Positions 1,316-14,868 of a DNA stretch of 22,774 nucleotides are shown in pieces. The stretch is from a virus. Lineage: Duplodnaviria > Heunggongvirae > Uroviricota > Caudoviricetes. The notes under the pieces were generated by a model, which worked only from the letters and a program-made list of their open reading frames with translations, did not search any database and was not told the DNA's origin. The stretch is from positions 1-22,774 of the IMG/VR virus record IMGVR_UViG_2675903366_000010, one strand, 5' to 3'. Position 1 is the stretch's first letter. The number at the start of each line of letters is the position of its first letter. A program made the translations under genes and the position numbers.

Positions 1316-1420
1316 AATCCGTTGAAGCCTGCTTTTTTATACTAAGTTGGCATTATAAAAAAGCATTGCTTATCAATTTGTTGCAACGAACAGGTCACTA
1401 TCAGTCAAAATAAAATCATT
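1316..1420. other. attL: bacterial B arm, 15-bp core GCTTTTTTATACTAA (1331-1345), phage P' arm with IHF-like site and Int arm-type sites
   Basis: Exact lambda core sequence; downstream TATCAATTTGTTG (IHF consensus) and CAGGTCACTAT / CAGTCAAAAT arm-type repeats, directly abutting the int stop. Confidence 0.9.
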
Positions 1421-2489
1421 ATTTGATTTCAATTTTGTCCCACTCCCTGCCTCTGTCATCACGATACTGTGATGCCATGGTGTCCGACTTATGCCCGAGA
1501 AGATGTTGAGCAAACTTATCGCTTATCTGCTTCTCATAGAGTCTTGCAGACAAACTGCGCAACTCGTGAAAGGTAGGCGGATCCCCTTCGAAGGAAAGAC
1601 CTGATGCTTTTCGTGCGCGCATAAAATACCTTGATACTGTGCCGGATGAAAGCGGTTCACGACGAGTAGATGCAATTATGGTTTCTCCGCCAAGAATCTC
1701 TTTGCATTTATCAAGTGTTTCCTTCATTGATATCCCGAGAGCATCAACATGCAATGTTGTAGGGATGGCAATTTTTACGCCTGTTTTGCTTTGTTCGACA
1801 TAAAGATATCCATCTACGATATCAGACCACTTCATTTCGCATAAATCACCAACTCGCTGCCCGGTAACAACAGCCAGTTCCATTGCAAGTCTGAGCCAAC
1901 ATGGTGATGATTCTGCTGCTTGATAAATTTTCAGGTATTCGTCAGCCGTAAGTCTTGATCTCCTTACCTCTGATTTTGCTGCGCGAGTGGCAGCGACCGG
2001 GTTTGTTGTTATATGGCCTTCAGCTATTGCCTCTCGGAATGCATCGCTCAGTGTTGATCTGATTAACTTGGCTGACGCCGCCTTGCCCTCGTCTATGTAT
2101 CCATTGAGCATTGCCGCAATTTCTTTTGTGGTGATGTCTTCAAGTGGAGCATCAGGCAGCCCCCTCCTTATTGCTTTAATTTTGCTCATGTAATTTATGA
2201 GTGTCTTCTGCTTGATTCCTCTGCTGGCGAGGATTTTTTCGTAGCGATCAAGCCATGAATGTAACGTAACAGAATTATCACTGTTGATTCTCGCTGTCAG
2301 AGGCTTGTGTTTGTGTCCTGAAAATAACTCAATATTGGCCTGTATTGCTTCAGTGATTGCTATCCTCCTGTCTCGGCCTAAACCAAACTCTTTACCCGTC
2401 CTTGGGTCCCTGTAGCAGTAATATCCATTGTTTCTTATATAAAGGTTAGGGGGTAAATCCCGGCGCTCATGACTTCGCCTTCTTCCCAT
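1419..2489 (-). CDS. int: Tyrosine integrase, lambda Int type
   Basis: 356-aa ORF beginning MGRRRSHERRDLPPNLYIRNNGYY, matching lambda Int from memory; adjacent to att core. Confidence 0.97.
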   Translation of the reverse strand: MGRRRSHERRDLPPNLYIRNNGYYCYRDPRTGKEFGLGRDRRIAITEAIQANIELFSGHKHKPLTARINSDNSVTLHSWLDRYEKILASRGIKQKTLINYMSKIKAIRRGLPDAPLEDITTKEIAAMLNGYIDEGKAASAKLIRSTLSDAFREAIAEGHITTNPVAATRAAKSEVRRSRLTADEYLKIYQAAESSPCWLRLAMELAVVTGQRVGDLCEMKWSDIVDGYLYVEQSKTGVKIAIPTTLHVDALGISMKETLDKCKEILGGETIIASTRREPLSSGTVSRYFMRARKASGLSFEGDPPTFHELRSLSARLYEKQISDKFAQHLLGHKSDTMASQYRDDRGREWDKIEIK

Positions 2490-2685
2490 TTCTGATCCTC
2501 TTCAAAAGGCTACCTGTTACTGGTCGATTTAAGTCAACCTTTACCGCTGATTCGTGGAACAGATACTCTCTTCCATCCTTAACCGGAGGAGGGAATATCC
2601 TGCATTCGCGCACCCATCGACGAACTGTTTCAAGGCTTCTTGGGCGTCGCTGGCGTGCGTTCCACTCCTGAAGTGTCAAGTACAT
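2467..2685 (-). CDS. xis: Excisionase Xis
   Basis: 72-aa ORF MYLTLQEWNARQRRPRSLETVRRWV matching lambda Xis; overlaps int start by 23 nt as in lambda. Confidence 0.95.
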   Translation of the reverse strand: MYLTLQEWNARQRRPRSLETVRRWVRECRIFPPPVKDGREYLFHESAVKVDLNRPVTGSLLKRIRNGKKAKS

Positions 2686-2724
2686 CGCAAAGTCTCCGCA
2701 ATTACACGCAAGAAAAAGCCGCCA

Positions 2725-2892
2725 TCAGGCGGCTTGGTGTTCTTTCAGTTCTTCAATTCGAATATTGGTTATGTCTGCATGTGCTATCTGCGCCCATATC
2801 ATCCAGTGGTCATAGCAGTCATTGATGTTCTCTGCTTCGATAACTCTGTTGAATGGTTCTCCATTCCATTCACCTGTGACTCGGAAGTGCAT
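2725..2892 (-). CDS. Small hypothetical protein (55 aa), xis-proximal, lambda orf55-like position
   Basis: Open frame translated by hand (MHFRVTGEWNGEPFNRVIEAENINDCYDHWMIWAQIAHADITNIRIEELKEHQAA); GGAG 7 nt upstream of the ATG; below the 60-aa cutoff of the ORF track. Confidence 0.55.
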   Translation of the reverse strand: MHFRVTGEWNGEPFNRVIEAENINDCYDHWMIWAQIAHADITNIRIEELKEHQAA

Positions 2893-3134
2893 TTATCATC
2901 TCCATAAAACAAAACCCGCCGTAGCGAGTTCAGATAAAAGAAATCCTCGTCAGTGCGAGGATGCTGTTCATTGCTGCTATACACTTTTTTGCTCTCAACG
3001 TAAGCGGTAGCTCATTCTGTTGGGTTGGTGCAGTTGCTTTTAGGAAATGCTATTTACCCCTTAAACGTCGGCTGAAAGAGCTAAAATCCATGCAAAAAAT
3101 TTACGCAATTTTGTGTATTATTGTGCAGTAAGTA

Positions 3135-3737
3135 ATGAGCTATTTTCTGCGCAAAAAATGGATGGTAAATTTGTCCGGGGCAGGAAAAATTTTATGGGCG
3201 CTAAACATGAAAAAAGATTCGTATCCTTATTTGATTTGCATGACAGTTTCAGGCCTGATCTTTATTTTCCTTTTCTTCTGGTGGCGGGCAGATATTTACA
3301 GGGTCACGTTTCTTAATCAGAGTATATCCCACTATTACATTCTGTTTAGCATGGGAATAGCTTTTCTGTTATCTCTGTTTTGGGTTAAGAAGGGGATAGT
3401 AAAACAAAGCGGCTGGAAGAGTCTGTCAGCATACCTTAAGGTTTATGCAGGGATGTGCATATTTGCTGGATTTTTTCTGATTATACCCCTTACAACACTA
3501 ACTTATTTTTTGCCTGGAGAGACATCGTCTTATGTTGCACCGTATCGGTATACTTCCGGTAGTTCAAAAAGTTGTTCTGGAGCTGAGGTGGATGACCCCG
3601 ATCTACATGAGAATATTCGCATTTGCTATCCGTATGGCAATTATGAGTACGATAATATTATCTATGTTGAAAAGAAAATTAATACATTAGGTGCGGTAGT
3701 AACATATGCACAGACCGCGCGTGATGATACTGAATGA
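3135..3737 (+). CDS. Hypothetical membrane protein (about 3 TM segments plus a roughly 70-aa C-terminal domain), AT-rich cargo gene on the strand opposite to the pL operon
   Basis: 200-aa ORF in AT-rich DNA; hydrophobic stretches LICMTVSGLIFIFLFFWW, YYILFSMGIAFLLSLFWV, GMCIFAGFFLIIPLTTL; start codon uncertain (in-frame ATGs at 3135, 3162, 3207). Confidence 0.55.
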   Translation: MSYFLRKKWMVNLSGAGKILWALNMKKDSYPYLICMTVSGLIFIFLFFWWRADIYRVTFLNQSISHYYILFSMGIAFLLSLFWVKKGIVKQSGWKSLSAYLKVYAGMCIFAGFFLIIPLTTLTYFLPGETSSYVAPYRYTSGSSKSCSGAEVDDPDLHENIRICYPYGNYEYDNIIYVEKKINTLGAVVTYAQTARDDTE

Positions 3738-3947
3738 GATAGTATATAGCGGGCAAGTTTTAGTTAATTTATCGAGGTAATATAATTTACCTCGACTCGT
3801 TTATTCTGGTATTAATATTTCGCTTTACGATCGATTTTTATCTGATGATATTATGCGGTTTTCATATACTGACTTACTGTCTTTTCTCCGTTAGCGATTT
3901 TCTCCTGCTCAGCGATGATTTTATCTTTGGCTTCTAGTTAATTTCGC

Positions 3948-4169
3948 TCACTTCGAACCTCTCTGTTTACTGATAAGTTCCAGATCCTCCTGGCAACTTG
4001 CACAAGTCCGACAACCCTGAACGGCCAGGCGTCTTCGCTCATCTATGGGATCGCCACACTCACAACAATGAGTGGCAGATATAGCCTGGTGGTTCAGGCG
4101 GCGCATTTTTATTGCTGTGTTGCGCTGTAATTCTTCAATTTCTGATGCTGAATCAATGATGTCTGCCAT
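3948..4169 (-). CDS. TraR/DksA-family C4 zinc-finger protein (lambda Orf73-like)
   Basis: 73-aa ORF with CCECGDPIDERRRLAVQGCRTCASC (CxxC...CxxC) typical of TraR/DksA C4 fingers; position matches lambda orf73. Confidence 0.8.
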   Translation of the reverse strand: MADIIDSASEIEELQRNTAIKMRRLNHQAISATHCCECGDPIDERRRLAVQGCRTCASCQEDLELISKQRGSK

Positions 4170-4224
4170 CTTCCATTAATCCCTGAATTGTTGGTTAATA
4201 CGCTTGAGGGTGAATGCGAACAAT

Positions 4225-4245
4225 AAAAAAGGAGCCTGTAGCTCC
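4225..4245 (-). terminator. Intrinsic terminator-like hairpin on the leftward transcript (tL3-like position)
   Basis: Minus strand reads GGAGC-tacag-GCTCC followed by TTTTTTATT. Confidence 0.5.
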
Positions 4246-4267
4246 CTGATGATTTTGCTTTTCATGC

Positions 4268-4483
4268 TCACCGTTCCTTAAAGACGCCGTTTAACATGCC
4301 GATCGCCAGGCTTAAATGAGTCGGTGTGAATCCCATCAGCGTTACCGTTTCGCGGTGCTTCTTCAGTACGCTACGGCAAATGTCATCGACGTTTTTATCC
4401 GGAAACTGCTGTCTGGCTTTTTTGATTTCAGAATTAGCCTGACGGGCAATACTGCGAAGGGCGTTTTCTTGCTGAGGTGTCAT
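4268..4483 (-). CDS. Small hypothetical early protein (71 aa from MTPQQENALRS; 93 aa if the upstream ATG at 4549 is used)
   Basis: ORF in the exo-proximal small-gene cluster of the pL operon; no recognisable motif. Confidence 0.55.
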   Translation of the reverse strand: MTPQQENALRSIARQANSEIKKARQQFPDKNVDDICRSVLKKHRETVTLMGFTPTHLSLAIGMLNGVFKER

Positions 4484-4559
4484 TGAACAAGTCCCATGTC
4501 GGCAAGCATAAGCACACAGAATATGAAGCCCGCTGCCAGAAAAATGCATTCAGTGGTTG

Positions 4560-4751
4560 TCATACCAGGTCTCTCTCATCTGCTTCTGCTTTCGCCACCA
4601 TCATTTCCAGCTTTTGCGAAAGGGATGTGGCTAACGTATGAAATTCTTCGTCTGTTTCTACTGGTATTGGCACAAACCTGACTCCAATTTGAGCAAGGCT
4701 ATGTGCCATCTCAATACTCGTTCTTAACTCAACAGGAGATGCTTTGTGCAT
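4560..4751 (-). CDS. Small early protein, lambda orf63/orf60a-family position (63 aa)
   Basis: 63-aa [40 protein letters not shown]; collinear with the lambda small ORFs between orf73 and exo. Confidence 0.65.
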   Translation of the reverse strand: MHKASPVELRTSIEMAHSLAQIGVRFVPIPVETDEEFHTLATSLSQKLEMMVAKAEADERDLV

Positions 4752-4912
4752 ATCGCCTCCCGTTTATTATTTATCTCCTCAGCCAGCCGCTGGGCTTTCA
4801 GTGGATTTTGGATAACAGAAAGGCCGGGAAATACCCAGCCTCGCTTTGTAACGGAGTAGACGAAAGTGATCGCACCTACCCGGATATTATCGTGAGGATG
4901 CGTCATCGCCAT
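4724..4912 (-). CDS. Small early protein, lambda orf61-like position (62 aa)
   Basis: ORF immediately upstream of exo, overlapping neighbours by short out-of-frame overlaps as in lambda. Confidence 0.55.
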
Positions 4913-5583
4913 TGCTCCCCAAATACAAAACCAATTTCAGCCAGTGCCTCGTCCATTTTTTCGATGAACTCCGGCACCATCTCGTCAAAACTCGCCATGT
5001 AATTTTCATCCCGCTCAACCACGACATAATGCAGGCCTTCACGCTTCATTCGTGGGTCATAGTTGGCAAAGTACCAGGCATCTTTTCGCGTCACCCACAT
5101 GCTGTACTGCACCTGGGCCATGTAAGCCGACTTTATGGCCTCGAAACCACCGAGCCGGAATTTCATGAAATCCCGGGAGGTAAACGGGCATTTCAGTTCA
5201 AGGCCGTTGCCGTCACTGCATAAACCATCGGGAGAGCAGGCGGTGCGCATACTTTCGTCGCGATAGATGATCGGGGATTCAGTAACATTCACGCCGGAAG
5301 TGAACTCAAAGAGGGCTCTGGCGTCGTTCTCGTACTGTATTCCCCAGGCCAGCGCCTTAGCGTTAACTTCCGGAGCCACACCGGTGCAAACCTCGGCAAG
5401 CAGGGTGTGGAAGTAGGACATTTTCATGTCAGGCCATTTCTTTCCGGAGCGGGGTTTTGCTATCACATTGTGAACTTCTGAAGCGGTGATGACGCCGAGC
5501 CGTAATTTGTGCCACGCATCATCCCCCTGTTCGACAGCTCTCACGTCGATTCCGGTACGCTGCAGGATAATGTCCGGTGTCAT
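4903..5583 (-). CDS. exo: Lambda exonuclease (Red-alpha)
   Basis: 226-aa ORF matching lambda Exo from memory ([40 protein letters not shown]). Confidence 0.97.
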
Positions 5584-6365
5584 ACAGCCACCTTCTGTTC
5601 AGAGGCTTTCTGTTTCAGGAATCCAAGAGCTTTCATTGCTTCTGCCTGTGTCAGTTCTGACGATGCGCGAATGTCGCGGCGAAATATCTGGGAACAGAGC
5701 GGCAATAAGTCGTCATCCCATGTTTTGTCCAGGGCAATCAGCAGAGTGTTAATCTCCTGCATGGTTTCATCGTTAACCGGAGTGATGTCGCGTTCCGGCT
5801 GGCGTTCTGCAGTGTATGCAGTATTTTCGACAATGCGCTCGGCTTCATCCTTGTCATAGATACCAGCAAATCCGAAGGCCAGACGGGCACACTGAATCAT
5901 AGCTTTATGCCGTAACATCCGTTTAGGATGCGACTGCCACGGCCCCGTGATTTCTCTGCCTTCGCGGGTTTTGAATGGTTCGCGGCGGCATTCATCCATC
6001 CATTCGGTAACGCAGATCGGATGATTACGGTCCTTGCGGTAAATCCGGCATGTACAGGATTCATTGTCCTGCTCAAAGTCCATGCCATCAAACTGCTGGT
6101 TTTCATTGATGATGCGGGACCAGCCATCAACGCCCACCACCGGAACGATGCCGTTCTGCTTATCAGGGAAGGCGTAAATTTCTTTCGTCCACGGATTAAG
6201 GCCGTACTGGTTGGCGACGATCAACAATGCGATGAACTGCGCATCGCTGGCATCGCCTTTAAATGCCGTCTGGCGAAGAGTGGTGATCAGTTCCTGTGGG
6301 TCGACAGAATCCATGCCGACACGTTCAGCCAGCTTCCCTGCCAGCGTTGCGAGTGCTGTACTCAT
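5580..6365 (-). CDS. bet: Red-beta single-strand annealing protein
   Basis: 261-aa ORF matching lambda Bet ([72 protein letters not shown]). Confidence 0.97.
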
Positions 6366-6370
6366 CCGTT

Positions 6371-6667
6371 TTATACCTCTGAATCAATATCAACCTGATG
6401 GTGAGCAATGGTGTCAACCATGTACCGGATGTGTTCTGCCATGCGCTCCTGAAACTCAACATCGTCATCAAACGCACGGGTAATGGCTTTTTTGCTGGCC
6501 CCGTGGCGTTGCAAATGACCGATGCATAGCGATTCAAACAGGTGCTGGGGCAGGCCTTTTTCCATGTCGTCTGCCAGTTCTGCCTCTTTCTCTTCACGGG
6601 CTATCTGCTGGTAGTGACGCGCCCAGCTCTGAGCCTCAAGACGATCCTGAATGTAATAAGCGTTCAT
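6371..6667 (-). CDS. gam: Gam, RecBCD inhibitor (98-aa short form only; see findings)
   Basis: [21 protein letters not shown]... matches lambda GamS; AGGAG 7 nt upstream; the upstream ATG at 6786-6788 is in a different frame. Confidence 0.9.
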
Positions 6668-6742
6668 GGCCGAACTCCTGAAAATGGCTGTGAAAATATC
6701 GCCCGCGAAATGCCGGGCTGATTAGGAAAACAGGAAAGGGGG

Positions 6743-6886
6743 TTAGTGAATGCTTTTGCTTGATCTCAGTTTCAGTATTAATATCCATTTTTTATAAGCG
6801 TCGACGGCCTCACGAAACATCTTTTCATCGCCAATAAAAGTGGCGATAGTGAATTTAGTCTGGATAGCCATAATTGTTTGATCCAT
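6743..6886 (-). CDS. kil: Kil (host cell-division inhibitor), 47 aa
   Basis: Internal ATG at 6884-6886 of the 89-aa track ORF gives [47 protein letters not shown]; AGGAG 9 nt upstream; 32-nt overlap with cIII as in lambda. Confidence 0.85.
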
Positions 6887-7019
6887 TTTTTGGGACTCCT
6901 GGCTGATTAAGTATGTCGATAAGGCGTTTCCATCCGTCACGTAATTTACGGGTGATTCGTTCAAGTAAAGATTCGGAAGGGCAGCCAGCAACAGGCCACC
7001 CTGCAATGGCATATTGCAT
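6855..7019 (-). CDS. cIII: CIII (FtsH inhibitor stabilising CII), 54 aa
   Basis: Hand translation [54 protein letters not shown]; AAGGAG upstream; below the ORF-track length cutoff. Confidence 0.9.
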   Translation of the reverse strand: MQYAIAGWPVAGCPSESLLERITRKLRDGWKRLIDILNQPGVPKNGSNNYGYPD

Positions 7020-7091
7020 GGTGTGCTCCTTATTTATACATAACGAAAAACGCCTCGAGTGAAGCGTAATTGGTATGCGGTAACGCCGCGC

Positions 7092-14591: not shown

Positions 14592-14683
14592 TTGACGCGA
14601 TGATTTATTTGGGGCTATATTCCTCACGCGCCAGCAAAATCTGGCGTCGGGATTAGGAACCCCGGATAGAGACCGCGACAGAC

Positions 14684-14708
14684 ACACGCCGCGAGCGTGT
14701 TTTTTATT
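14684..14708 (+). terminator. Intrinsic terminator-like hairpin in the ninE-roi intergenic region
   Basis: ACACGC-cgcga-GCGTGT followed by TTTTTTATT. Confidence 0.5.
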
Positions 14709-14868
14709 GTCGTATGCACGCGCACATCTGAATTATGGTGGGGCGTATGGGGGAGCTGAAAAGCTCGCCGGTTGGTTTCCCGGTAGTTCCTAACCCTGTA
14801 CGTCTCACCACCCGATGATTAGGAACCTGACGGTGGTGATAGTTTAGAAACCACTCGAGGGCGTCATT

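Follow-up and report, generated by a model that had tools for sequence, protein, structure and literature searches.

Positions 2963-3935 of the window (the whole 22,774-nucleotide stretch of viral DNA analysed here) are, judged by their sequence, a moron: a self-contained foreign cassette that replaces ea8.5 and ea22 in a lambda-like early-left region. Its gene, located on the plus strand at 3207..3737 (stop codon included), encodes a 176-aa membrane protein, and comparisons with homologues place it under strong purifying selection, with a dN/dS of about 0.1. It is possible, at somewhat less than even odds, that the cassette's product is a prophage-expressed protein with three transmembrane (TM) helices and a periplasmic barrel, which blocks superinfecting phages at the cell envelope. 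A serious rival is a role in the envelope or in immunity that has nothing to do with phage.

A foreign cassette in place of ea8.5 and ea22

We compared the window with the lambda reference genome (NC_001416) by blastn, and found that lambda 27724-29355 corresponds to window 1331-2962 (97.9% identity) and lambda 30380-33500 to window 3936-7056 (97.2%). Both flanks are thus collinear with lambda, as the original prediction had stated. Since the alignments end at 2962 and resume at 3936, the 973 bp between them (2963..3935) substitute for the 1,024 bp of lambda 29356-30379. This lambda segment contains ea8.5 and ea22 minus its first 5 codons, and the predicted replacement of the ea8.5/ea22 region proved to be exact. 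The copy studied here is flanked by orf55/xis and the orf73-like gene in a lambdoid prophage, and not by gpQ and gpA, the P2 site described below.

The left flank is the orf55 homologue (2725..2892, minus strand; lambdap35 of lambda, ORF55 of phage 434). The right flank is a minus-strand gene for a 73-aa TraR/DksA-type zinc-finger protein (3948..4169), whose DNA is 97% identical to lambda and which is unannotated in the lambda reference record. At the left edge of the substitution we located the tL4 terminator of the leftward (pL) transcript (2943..2962, minus strand), which is labelled t-L4 in the 434 record M60848 and was also found in our hairpin scan, together with a second terminator-like hairpin on the same strand (2912-2931). 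The right edge holds remnants of ea22 (3890..3951, minus strand). Here, alignment with lambda shows that the start of ea22 survives as VSEIN followed by a stop codon (3934-3951). A short Ea22-like coiled-coil remnant at 3890-3937 was matched by tblastn with a fragment flanking the P2-hotspot copy, a weak match (69% over 16 aa, E 0.21). The P2 copy is itself adjoined by an ead/Ea22-like partial gene in the PGAP annotation.

The region was also described as AT-rich, in agreement with a GC content of 0.33-0.41 over 2850-3900 vs 0.44-0.56 in the flanks. The value is 0.388 for the gene and 0.376 for the cassette, compared with 0.458 in int-xis-orf55 and 0.502 in orf73-bet. Two of the features by which morons are recognised are found here: the segment is present in some relatives and absent from others, with sharp breakpoints (97-98% identity to lambda up to 2962 and again from 3936), and its base composition deviates from that of the neighbouring phage genes. 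The protein is encoded by only 5 of 50,697 phage records.

The gene runs opposite to the minus-strand int-xis-orf55 and orf73-like...exo-bet-gam genes, and is therefore convergent with the pL transcript, as proposed. The proposed lack of minus-strand ORFs between about 2900 and 3940 was borne out as well: none of at least 40 aa is present in 2985-3947, and a 61-aa GTG ORF (2799..2984), which overlaps orf55 out of frame, intrudes by 85 nt. Two other annotated ORFs of the region were rejected. The upstream 56-aa ORF at 2961-3131 (CPT_434_35, "putative membrane protein") was judged not to be a gene, as its ATG is missing in the 97.8%-identical copy L021 and the changes there are mostly nonsynonymous. 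This ORF overlaps the tL4 hairpin and the promoter repeats. ORF-22+ of M60848 (the frame of 3113-3316) is an overlapping-frame ORF, and the conserved frame is another.

Reading frame and transcription signals

The original prediction placed a 200-aa gene with an ATG start at 3135..3737. The ORF is present in the ORF list at those coordinates, but its length and start did not hold, and the coding sequence is better described as 3207..3737. The evidence favours ATG 3207 as the start codon and a protein of 176 aa, because stop codons break the 24-codon N-terminal extension of the longer ORF in both close and distant relatives. Specifically, in-frame stops are found in L021 and in the P2-type copies L014, L015, and L018. 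In the alignment, M25 of the 200-aa ORF is the start of all homologues at 42-78% identity. The density of variable sites is 0.29 in 3135..3206 vs 0-0.18 in segments of the core protein, and for L021 the 176-aa form was called by PGAP itself. Elsewhere, the gene is annotated from TTG 3171 in the 434 record (188 aa) and from ATG 3135 in PGAP (200 aa); both starts were rejected on account of the stops in relatives and the common start at M25. We thus assign the plus-strand segment 3135..3206 to noncoding DNA that contains the promoter -10 region and the 5' leader.

The 176-aa reading frame is evidently maintained as a protein. Its dN/dS against diverged copies is 0.08-0.15, there are 0 nonsynonymous changes at a pS of 0.06 in the comparison with L021, and 30 columns of the protein alignment are invariant across genera. 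The original prediction had named a chance ORF as an outcome that would overturn it. Such an ORF, or an annotation artefact, might be suspected from the lack of a Pfam/NCBIfam match and from the fact that AT-rich DNA yields hydrophobic ORFs by chance. The homologue alignment and dN/dS already refute this explanation, and the confident AF2 model and the 61 clusters sharing one architecture (both described below) also speak against it, leaving it a negligible probability.

Upstream of the gene, a sigma-70 promoter is predicted on the plus strand at 3143..3171, with the -35 element TTTTCT (3143-3148), a 17-nt spacer, and the extended -10 element TGgTAAATT (3163-3171); transcription is predicted to begin near 3178. 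These positions are invariant columns of the upstream alignment with P2-type copies, and the patterns TG-n-TAAnTT and TTT(T/C)C(T/A) are retained in the chromosomal copies of Cedecea and Citrobacter. The -35 and extended -10 blocks are invariant in five genomic contexts, including lambdoid, P2-type, Cedecea, and Citrobacter. A generic promoter scan did not report this promoter, because its -35 element matches only 3/6 positions, and the four hits of that scan equal the chance expectation. The AT-rich promoter region could be silenced by H-NS, which would speak against the exclusion function considered below.

Three direct TTGTGCA-like repeats with a 10-nt period precede the promoter on the plus strand (3100..3128; TTTACGCAA / TTTTGTGTA / TTATTGTGCAG). 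They form a candidate regulator site that L015 and L018, both phage-borne copies, have conserved. The annotators of phage 434 labelled 3111-3124 as a CII box. We found this label unsupported: the site reads TTGT-N6-TTGT, whereas all three known CII sites of the window read TTGC-N6-TTGC, and the degenerate CII-like pattern is not enriched in the window (9 found vs 6.3 +/- 2.6 expected).

Downstream, a terminator scan revealed a plus-strand intrinsic-terminator-like hairpin with a 9-bp stem (3772-3795; 3772..3805 with its T-rich tail), 35 nt past the stop codon. The terminator region is common to the window and the E. coli P2-type copy L018. With invariant promoter elements before the gene and this hairpin after its stop codon, the cassette has the makings of a putative transcription unit of its own, which is consistent with the proposed expression independent of the early operon. 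An Rfam scan of the whole window gave no RNA family match within 2900-3950.

Carriers of the gene and the P2 hotspot

The window matches phage 434 at 99.8% DNA identity over 2900-3950, and its protein shares 100% identity with CPT_434_36 (OL657226). The latter is annotated as "putative membrane protein", with no function assigned (Feiss et al. 2022, PMC9119081). Other carriers of the gene are phages 2B8 and mEp332 and E. coli O157:H7 Sakai (ECs_0804); the protein accessions are WP_000120060/WP_000711110. Family members at 42-78% identity, with the same start and the same architecture, occur in Escherichia, Salmonella, Citrobacter, Enterobacter, Klebsiella, and Cedecea. A profile search extended the family to 61 clusters, throughout which the architecture is kept. 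One match of this search, the giant repetitive protein P0138, was judged spurious, as it matched through Cys-motif repeats.

The cassette was found in 998 of 5,426 complete E. coli genomes (about 18%), and in every O157:H7 or O55:H7 genome among the top matches. The gene is intact in the defective Sakai prophage Sp3, where int and bet are pseudogenes. Likewise, the protein is 100% identical in a KplE1-like remnant, in which the neighbouring phage genes are pseudogenes. Prophage Sp3 also carries envelope morons, e.g. lpxR.

In P2-like prophages of Salmonella and E. coli, homologues with 70-78% identity (L014-L019) are located between the portal gene gpQ and gpA. The mobile cassette common to these copies, consisting of promoter, gene, and terminator, spans 3013..3844 on the plus strand: in blastn, L018 and L019 match the window at 3013-3074, 3070-3211, and 3696-3844 with 69-77% identity. 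One P2-hotspot copy is frameshifted. The gpQ-gpA locus is the old/tin anti-phage hotspot of P2; its fourth most common cargo is system no. 4 ("3 TM", 470 occurrences; Table S5B), and it also holds cargo unrelated to defence, e.g. partition systems and the cytolethal distending toxin Cdt (Rousset et al. 2022, PMC9122126). We found that the representative of this system is homologous to the 176-aa protein (BLASTP, 52% identity over 168 aa, residues 1-168, E 3e-57). Both have three TM helices and a C-terminal CSGA...ICYP domain, and both are single-gene units. The difference is one of location, the P2 site vs the lambdoid exo-xis region for the copy studied here. What was published of system 4 is its sequence, its count of 470, and the remark "3 TM", with neither name nor domain, and the family is missing from the table of tested systems in the same work, as a motif search matched Table S5 and not Table S2. 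At the equivalent defence locus of P4 satellites, 6 of 8 randomly chosen loci of unknown function gave protection when tested (PMC13586616).

Family members also occupy fixed syntenic chromosomal sites in Enterobacter, Klebsiella, Cedecea/Pseudescherichia, and Citrobacter that belong to neither prophages nor defence islands, and there they are GC-ameliorated to a host-like GC content. In Enterobacter the gene begins 16 nt after a LysR regulator gene, and the order LysR-gene-GGDEF is found in at least six species of this genus. Because these syntenic copies lie in neighbourhoods related to neither phage nor defence, the family cannot be regarded as a purely phage function. The gene is always single and its neighbours vary with every context; no toxin gene was found beside a family member in any context examined.

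Predicted architecture and candidate functions

The small membrane protein with a C-terminal soluble domain that was originally envisaged is what TM and structure prediction returned: three TM helices followed by a C-terminal non-membrane domain. The AF2 model (pLDDT 87) comprises the three helices and a 5-strand beta domain, which reached a pLDDT of 88 when modelled in isolation. The three TM helices predict an inner-membrane location. In the predicted topology, the N-terminus and the lysine-rich TM2-TM3 loop are cytoplasmic, and the short TM1-TM2 loop and the C-terminal five-stranded beta-barrel of roughly 75 aa are periplasmic. The net charge is +3.6 for the TM2-TM3 loop and -1.3 for the C-terminal domain, and the predicted cytoplasmic parts are about 7 aa (N-terminus) and about 19 aa (loop). 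The protein contains exactly two cysteines, C123 and C140, both invariant and both in the barrel, which probably form a disulphide. Conservation is 65% in the C-terminal domain vs 32-36% in TM2/TM3. Since the periplasmic face is the most conserved, the protein is expected to act either periplasmically or on the outer side of the inner membrane.

A literature search found no paper mentioning this membrane-protein family, and searches of Pfam/NCBIfam and of the PADLOC-DB v2 defence HMMs (0 families at E <= 1) gave no family match. Among PHROGs, only phrog_1416, which has no annotation, was matched (E 2.1e-50; residues 113-200 of the 200-aa ORF vs profile positions 1-88/90). It covers the C-terminal domain only, and no superinfection-exclusion PHROG was matched. 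A sequence profile search of the PDB found no match, and the family shows no clear similarity to a solved structure; candidate structural relatives are membrane-anchored small beta-barrels of the DUF1093/YxeA type (PDB 3npp, 2k5q) and OB / cold-shock-like barrels.

Two known exclusion proteins serve for comparison. P22 SieA, the product of a single prophage gene, is a small (about 164 aa) multi-TM inner-membrane superinfection-exclusion protein (Leavitt et al. 2024, PMC10883804). It has its own promoter, is oriented against the neighbouring operon, and is sufficient alone, and we use it as a working analogy for the 176-aa protein. However, SieA is without a periplasmic beta-barrel and without sequence or profile similarity to the 176-aa protein, and hhalign gave a probability of 0.2%, i.e. 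no homology. HK97 gp15 is reported to be a small inner-membrane protein that is expressed from the prophage and mediates superinfection exclusion (Cumby et al. 2012). Its gene is a textbook moron, followed in the HK97 record by an annotated terminator. It differs in its length of 62 aa, in its place among the tail genes, and in its sequence, for which hhalign gave a probability of 0.9% (again no homology).

The original idea of an exclusion or conversion gene receives indirect support from the gene's status as P2-hotspot cargo and from its intactness in decayed prophages. Indeed, a cassette that recurs in the P2 defence hotspot and is carried by about 18% of the complete E. coli genomes is a good candidate for phage exclusion, and we count its frequency and the intact gene in defective prophages as signs of a benefit to the host. 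As an exclusion protein, it would be expressed from the repressed prophage and shield the lysogen at the level of the envelope, where the genomes of superinfecting phages would most likely be stopped on their way in, at a periplasmic or inner-membrane step. An unrelated protein would here follow the logic of P22 SieA or HK97 gp15. The mode would probably be the binding of a conserved host inner-membrane or periplasmic component, or of the phage's trans-envelope conduit. We tentatively extend this proposal, as a speculation with a minority chance of being right, to a new non-homologous family of single-gene, envelope-acting exclusion determinants, in which the disulphide-bonded barrel clamps a host component that many phages need for genome entry. 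A roughly 0.8-kb promoter-gene-terminator cassette would then shuttle among lambdoid prophages, the P2 old/tin hotspot, and chromosomal islets. Clamping a host component would lead to broad rather than self-type exclusion, and this would explain the unrelated phage carriers and the occurrence in E. coli genomes including O157:H7. Several observations count against exclusion. The chromosomal copies in metabolic or regulatory neighbourhoods fit a housekeeping or envelope role equally well, and the periplasmic domain is conserved and not diversifying, which is unusual for a phage-contacting surface. Furthermore, the P2 hotspot includes non-defence cargo and a frameshifted copy of this gene, and the protein has no resemblance to known exclusion or defence proteins.

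The same chromosomal copies, with their host-like GC, their position outside prophages and defence islands, and the 16-nt spacing to LysR in Enterobacter, speak for an envelope or fitness factor unrelated to phage, which prophages would carry as a lysogenic-conversion gene; we give this explanation a substantial minority chance. The barrel might then confer orphan immunity against periplasm-acting toxins (colicins, CDI, T6SS effectors), protect from envelope stress, or modulate a host envelope protein. A conserved, non-diversifying periplasmic domain suits a host or toxin ligand. Immunity proteins to pore-forming colicins are typically small inner-membrane proteins with 3-4 TM helices. The company of other envelope morons in Sp3 (lpxR) and of virulence cargo in the P2 hotspot fits as well. 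On the other hand, no toxin gene adjoins the family in the contexts examined, and so frequent an occurrence in the P2 old/tin hotspot points rather to a role in inter-phage conflict.

An abortive-infection effector that depolarises or permeabilises the inner membrane upon infection, like RexB or the TM effectors of CBASS/Thoeris, is unlikely. In its favour, the protein is a multi-TM protein located in a defence hotspot, and suicide effectors are what the TM proteins of known systems are presumed to be (Rousset et al. 2022, PMC9122126). However, there is no sensor partner, as the gene is always alone among variable neighbours. The cytoplasmic parts are too tiny to sense phage products in the cytoplasm, most of the conservation lies on the periplasmic side, and the chromosomal gene is stably retained in several genera. 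Even less probable is a gene that serves the phage's own programme, whether as a CII-activated establishment gene, an antisense brake on pL, or a modulator of lysis or adsorption. Being transcribed against pL, the gene might disturb the N-antiterminated leftward transcription that proceeds toward xis/int, and the 434 annotators' CII-box consensus and the conservation of the 10-nt-period TTGT repeats in phage-borne copies also count in favour. Against this stand the mismatch of 3111-3124 to bona fide CII sites and the near-chance frequency of the pattern. The same cassette also occurs in P2-like phages without CII and pL and in chromosomes, the gene is intact in remnants incapable of lytic growth, and purifying selection acts on the protein, beyond the act of transcription.

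The family is widespread, being present in 998 of 5,426 E. coli genomes, in O157:H7/O55:H7, in the classical phage 434, and at rank four of P2 hotspot cargo, and yet it has no name and no domain. If it is a true exclusion protein, it would represent a new protein family, probably with a new envelope target for superinfection exclusion, and would document cargo exchange between lambdoid and P2-type prophages. It would also bear on host-range prediction and on phage therapy against pathogenic E. coli and Salmonella. Should its function instead concern the envelope or immunity, the gene would be a widespread agent of lysogenic conversion.

Gene model and selection

The six-frame ORF list of the window holds a plus-strand, ATG-initiated ORF of 200 aa at 3135..3737. 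We found 74 relatives of its product among 5.8 billion proteins, and a profile run against 1.84 billion cluster representatives matched only 61 clusters. In a scan of one genome per species, the relatives were almost confined to Enterobacteriaceae. The sole match outside this family lies on a 3.6-kb MAG contig (JARKOR010000073.1, 'Candidatus Nanosynbacter' MAG). This contig clearly derives from an E. coli prophage and almost certainly entered the MAG by mis-binning; it carries a 99%-identical gene with lambda-type exo, bet and a TraR-like gene.

All relatives at 42-78% identity start at the residue-25 Met of the 200-aa ORF (MKKDSYP...) and have lengths of 169-186 aa. The 24-codon extension is broken by in-frame stops in four copies: a 97.8%-identical copy in a KplE1-like remnant (L021), an E. 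coli P2-type copy (L018) and two Salmonella P2-type copies (L014, L015). Among near-identical alleles, the density of variable sites in the extension is about twice that of the remaining protein. The family alignment has 30 invariant columns, and dN/dS (Nei-Gojobori) is 0.08-0.15 against P2-type copies; against L021, there are 0 nonsynonymous changes at a pS of 0.06. The common start, the stops in the extension and the dN/dS values together place the coding sequence at 3207..3737 (plus strand, 176 aa). The original prediction of a 200-aa gene at 3135-3737 thus stands as to a real plus-strand gene, and its length and start are revised to 176 aa and 3207. The relatives and the purifying selection exclude a chance ORF.

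The start at 3207 supersedes the 200-aa PGAP start and the TTG start of the phage 434 annotation (3171, 188 aa), and the 1991 'ORF-22+' lies in a different frame from 3207..3737, which replaces it. We also rejected the phage 434 'putative membrane protein' CPT_434_35, a 56-aa ORF at 2961-3131 (plus strand). In L021 it has lost its ATG and differs mostly by nonsynonymous changes, and it covers the tL4 hairpin and the promoter repeats; on this comparison it is probably not a gene.

A cassette in place of ea8.5 and ea22

The source element, a lambdoid prophage, occupies attLambda, and ybhC lies at the window's left end. The gene is flanked on the left by orf55 (2725..2892) and on the right by a 73-aa TraR/DksA-type zinc-finger gene (3948..4169). 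Both are on the minus strand, as are int, xis, exo, bet and gam further out, so the gene does run opposite to its neighbours. Direct alignment matched lambda 27724-29355 to window 1331-2962 (97.9%) and lambda 30380-33500 to window 3936-7056 (97.2%), which bears out the predicted collinearity of the flanks. Since the aligned flanks end at 2962 and resume at 3936, the 973 bp at 2963-3935 substitute exactly for 1,024 bp in lambda. These hold ea8.5 and the whole of ea22 except its first five codons, confirming the replacement of both genes; an ea22 start stump (VSEIN, then a stop) remains at 3934-3951 on the minus strand. No minus-strand ORF of at least 40 aa occurs between 2985 and 3947 in the six-frame list, and GC dips to 0.33-0.41 compared with 0.44-0.56 in the surroundings, as anticipated for an AT-rich region devoid of minus-strand genes.

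The TraR/DksA-type gene probably corresponds to 'orf73' in the exo-xis literature. Its DNA is 97% identical to lambda at 30.4-30.8 kb, where NC_001416 carries no annotation. In phage 434, an additional ORF114 separates xis from ORF55 (L001 3453-3797; compare window 2685-2725); in the window prophage, as in lambda, xis directly adjoins orf55.

The lambdoid copy and the copies in P2-like prophages share a conserved stretch of about 130 nt upstream of the ATG. The invariant columns of this alignment include a predicted plus-strand promoter, which combines a weak -35 (TTTTCT, 3143-3148), a 17-nt spacer and an extended -10 (TG-g-TAAATT, 3163-3171). The pattern TGnTAAnTT with TTT(T/C)C(T/A) is also retained in chromosomal Cedecea and Citrobacter copies. 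A generic promoter scan did not report the promoter at 3143-3171 because its -35 matches just 3/6 positions. Just upstream, three TTGTGCA-like direct repeats with an exact 10-nt period (3100-3128, plus strand) form a candidate regulator site. They are kept in the phage-borne P2-type copies, reading TTGT-N6-TTGT-N6-TTGT in L015. Here the phage 434 annotators placed a CII box (3111-3124). Our comparison does not support this label: the site is TTGT-N6-TTGT, the degenerate pattern occurs at chance frequency, and all three genuine CII sites in the window (pI, pRE and paQ positions) read TTGC-N6-TTGC.

Beyond the stop codon, a 9-bp hairpin with a T-rich tail (3772-3805, plus strand) is a predicted terminator, and the P2-type copy L018 has the hairpin in common. 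Promoter and terminator are both sequence-level predictions. The unit common to the P2 copies spans about 3013-3844 (blastn), and the cassette has the marks of a moron, namely sharp breakpoints and an aberrant composition (GC 0.376). Since the tL4 terminator (2943-2962, minus strand) lies at the left breakpoint on the other strand, N-antiterminated pL transcription must cross the cassette antisense. In a repressed prophage, the predicted promoter would be unopposed.

The window also holds other RNA elements. Above the Rfam gathering thresholds we identified the Hfq-binding sRNA isrK (14628-14705), a C4 antisense RNA (14731-14815) and a C4 a1/b1 target (14615-14668), all on the plus strand. The stretch 14615-14815 is a P1/P7-type c4 antisense module with an isrK element in a lambdoid prophage. 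The lambda cIII thermoregulator element (RF01804, 88.5 bits) lies at 6974-7032 on the minus strand, a type of element expected upstream of cIII.

Distribution in prophages and chromosomes

Among sequenced phages, only 434, 2B8 and mEp332 carry the gene, and the phage 434 genome paper gave it no function (PMC9119081). It occurs in 998 of 5,426 complete E. coli genomes (915 copies at ≥95% identity, 83 at 60-80%), and the sampled contexts are lambdoid prophages at attLambda, a Sakai prophage and a KplE1-like remnant. In prophage Sp3 of O157:H7 Sakai, the gene (ECs_0804) is intact, and int and bet are pseudogenes. The cargo of this defective prophage further includes lpxR (lipid A 3'-O-deacylase) and pphA (L034 9892-10851), so that ECs_0804 is co-resident with envelope-modifying morons. 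In a KplE1-like remnant adjoining torI, the flanking phage genes are pseudogenes and the protein is 100% identical. This locus, L021 (NZ_CP034787.1 1429983-1438696), lies beside torI and dsdC; its 176-aa gene is intact, with an IS4 pseudogene on one side and a degraded exo (YqaJ) pseudogene on the other, and looks domesticated.

P2-like prophages of Salmonella and E. coli carry copies at 70-78% identity between the portal gene gpQ and the replication gene A. This gpQ-gpA (old/tin) locus is an anti-phage hotspot, and its system no. 4 in Table S5B has 470 occurrences, '3 TM' and no domain (Rousset et al., PMC9122126). The representative of system no. 4 matches our gene product at 52% identity (E 3e-57), and the homologue is absent from the table of tested systems in that study (PMC9122126). 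One P2 copy is adjoined by an ead/Ea22-like fragment (L019 5748-6119), weakly matched by a short Ea22-like coiled-coil remnant with the ea22 start beside the window gene (3890-3951, minus strand). These remnants suggest that the P2 hotspots may have received the cassette from a lambdoid exo-xis region.

At 34-56% identity, the more distant homologues lie in chromosomes. They occupy a syntenic LysR-gene-GGDEF-AI-2E locus in at least six Enterobacter species and a common locus near yccA in Cedecea and Pseudescherichia. In Klebsiella the site is flanked by a bgl-type PTS operon and a LysR gene, and in Citrobacter it is an islet separating rstA from rstB. GC is host-like (0.52-0.55) in the Enterobacter and Klebsiella copies, compared with 0.38-0.42 in phage-borne ones. 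In the Enterobacter cloacae complex (L004 5085-6510; L024-L032), the orthologue begins 16 nt past the stop of a LysR-family regulator gene, with which it may form an operon, and lies upstream of a HAMP-GGDEF gene. The LysR gene is absent or degraded in some species (L025-L027); the membrane-protein gene is kept.

Protein architecture and proposed function

Hydropathy analysis revealed three hydrophobic windows of 19 residues each. The AlphaFold2 model (20-sequence alignment, pLDDT 87) has helices at residues 5-29, 38-61 and 70-101, a short strand in the first loop (34-36), and five strands between residues 105 and 171, in agreement with the proposed membrane protein with a soluble C-terminal domain. 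Modelled alone, this domain gave the same fold (pLDDT 88), a barrel apparently of generic small OB/cold-shock/DUF1093-like type. Membrane proteins can be oriented by the positive-inside rule. The family-wide net charges (+3.6 for the TM2-TM3 loop, -1.3 for the C-terminal domain) predict that the N-terminus and the lysine-rich TM2-TM3 loop are cytoplasmic, with the TM1-TM2 loop and the C-terminal barrel in the periplasm. The barrel contains exactly two cysteines, both invariant, and a disulphide is plausible. Conservation peaks in the periplasmic domain (mean identity to the query 65%) and is weakest in TM2 and TM3 (32-36%). The protein is thus predicted to lie in the inner membrane with a conserved periplasmic surface, and this conservation, with the minimal cytoplasmic portions of the predicted topology, points to action on the periplasmic side.

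Foldseek against PDB and BFVD gave no match at E <= 1e-3, a PDB sequence profile search gave nothing significant (best E 0.38), and Pfam, NCBIfam and PADLOC gave no match. In PHROGs, the sole match was phrog_1416, an unannotated 90-position profile over the C-terminal domain. Profile comparison with P22 SieA and HK97 gp15 was negative.

The gene is an apparently autonomous single-gene unit under strong purifying selection among variable neighbours. Its occurrences are enriched at a locus that prophages use for anti-phage cargo, and it persists as the surrounding prophage decays. It would be expressed from the prophage, and its product would benefit the host at the envelope. The simplest reading, which we offer tentatively, is superinfection exclusion at the periplasm/inner-membrane stage of genome entry, for which P22 SieA (PMC10883804) and HK97 gp15 are an analogous, not homologous, working model. 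Because siphovirus-type and myovirus-type prophages both carry the cassette, and because the periplasmic domain shows conservation, not diversification, the protein may be directed at a conserved component of the host or at heterologous phages, not at the carrier's own type.

As the main rival, the product would serve the envelope or immunity in a way that has nothing to do with phage. In its favour are orthologues stably kept at chromosomal sites among ordinary genes, and the non-defence cargo also found in the P2 hotspot; we rate this rival somewhat below exclusion. An abortive-infection effector is less likely still, as the gene has no partner and its product almost no cytoplasmic mass. Retention in dead prophages and in chromosomes makes a role in the carrier phage's own cycle unlikely.

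The sequence itself was already known: thousands of genome annotations list it as hypothetical, and it also appears in phage 434 and in a hotspot table already in print. We add the corrected gene model, define the promoter-gene-terminator cassette and its conservation, delimit the lambda substitution exactly, and link the lambdoid copy to the P2-hotspot family and the chromosomal orthologues. The gene, not surprising in kind, stands out by its unusual abundance and clinical relevance (O157:H7, Salmonella) and can be tested directly. If it encodes an exclusion protein, it would represent a new protein family with a function of a known kind.
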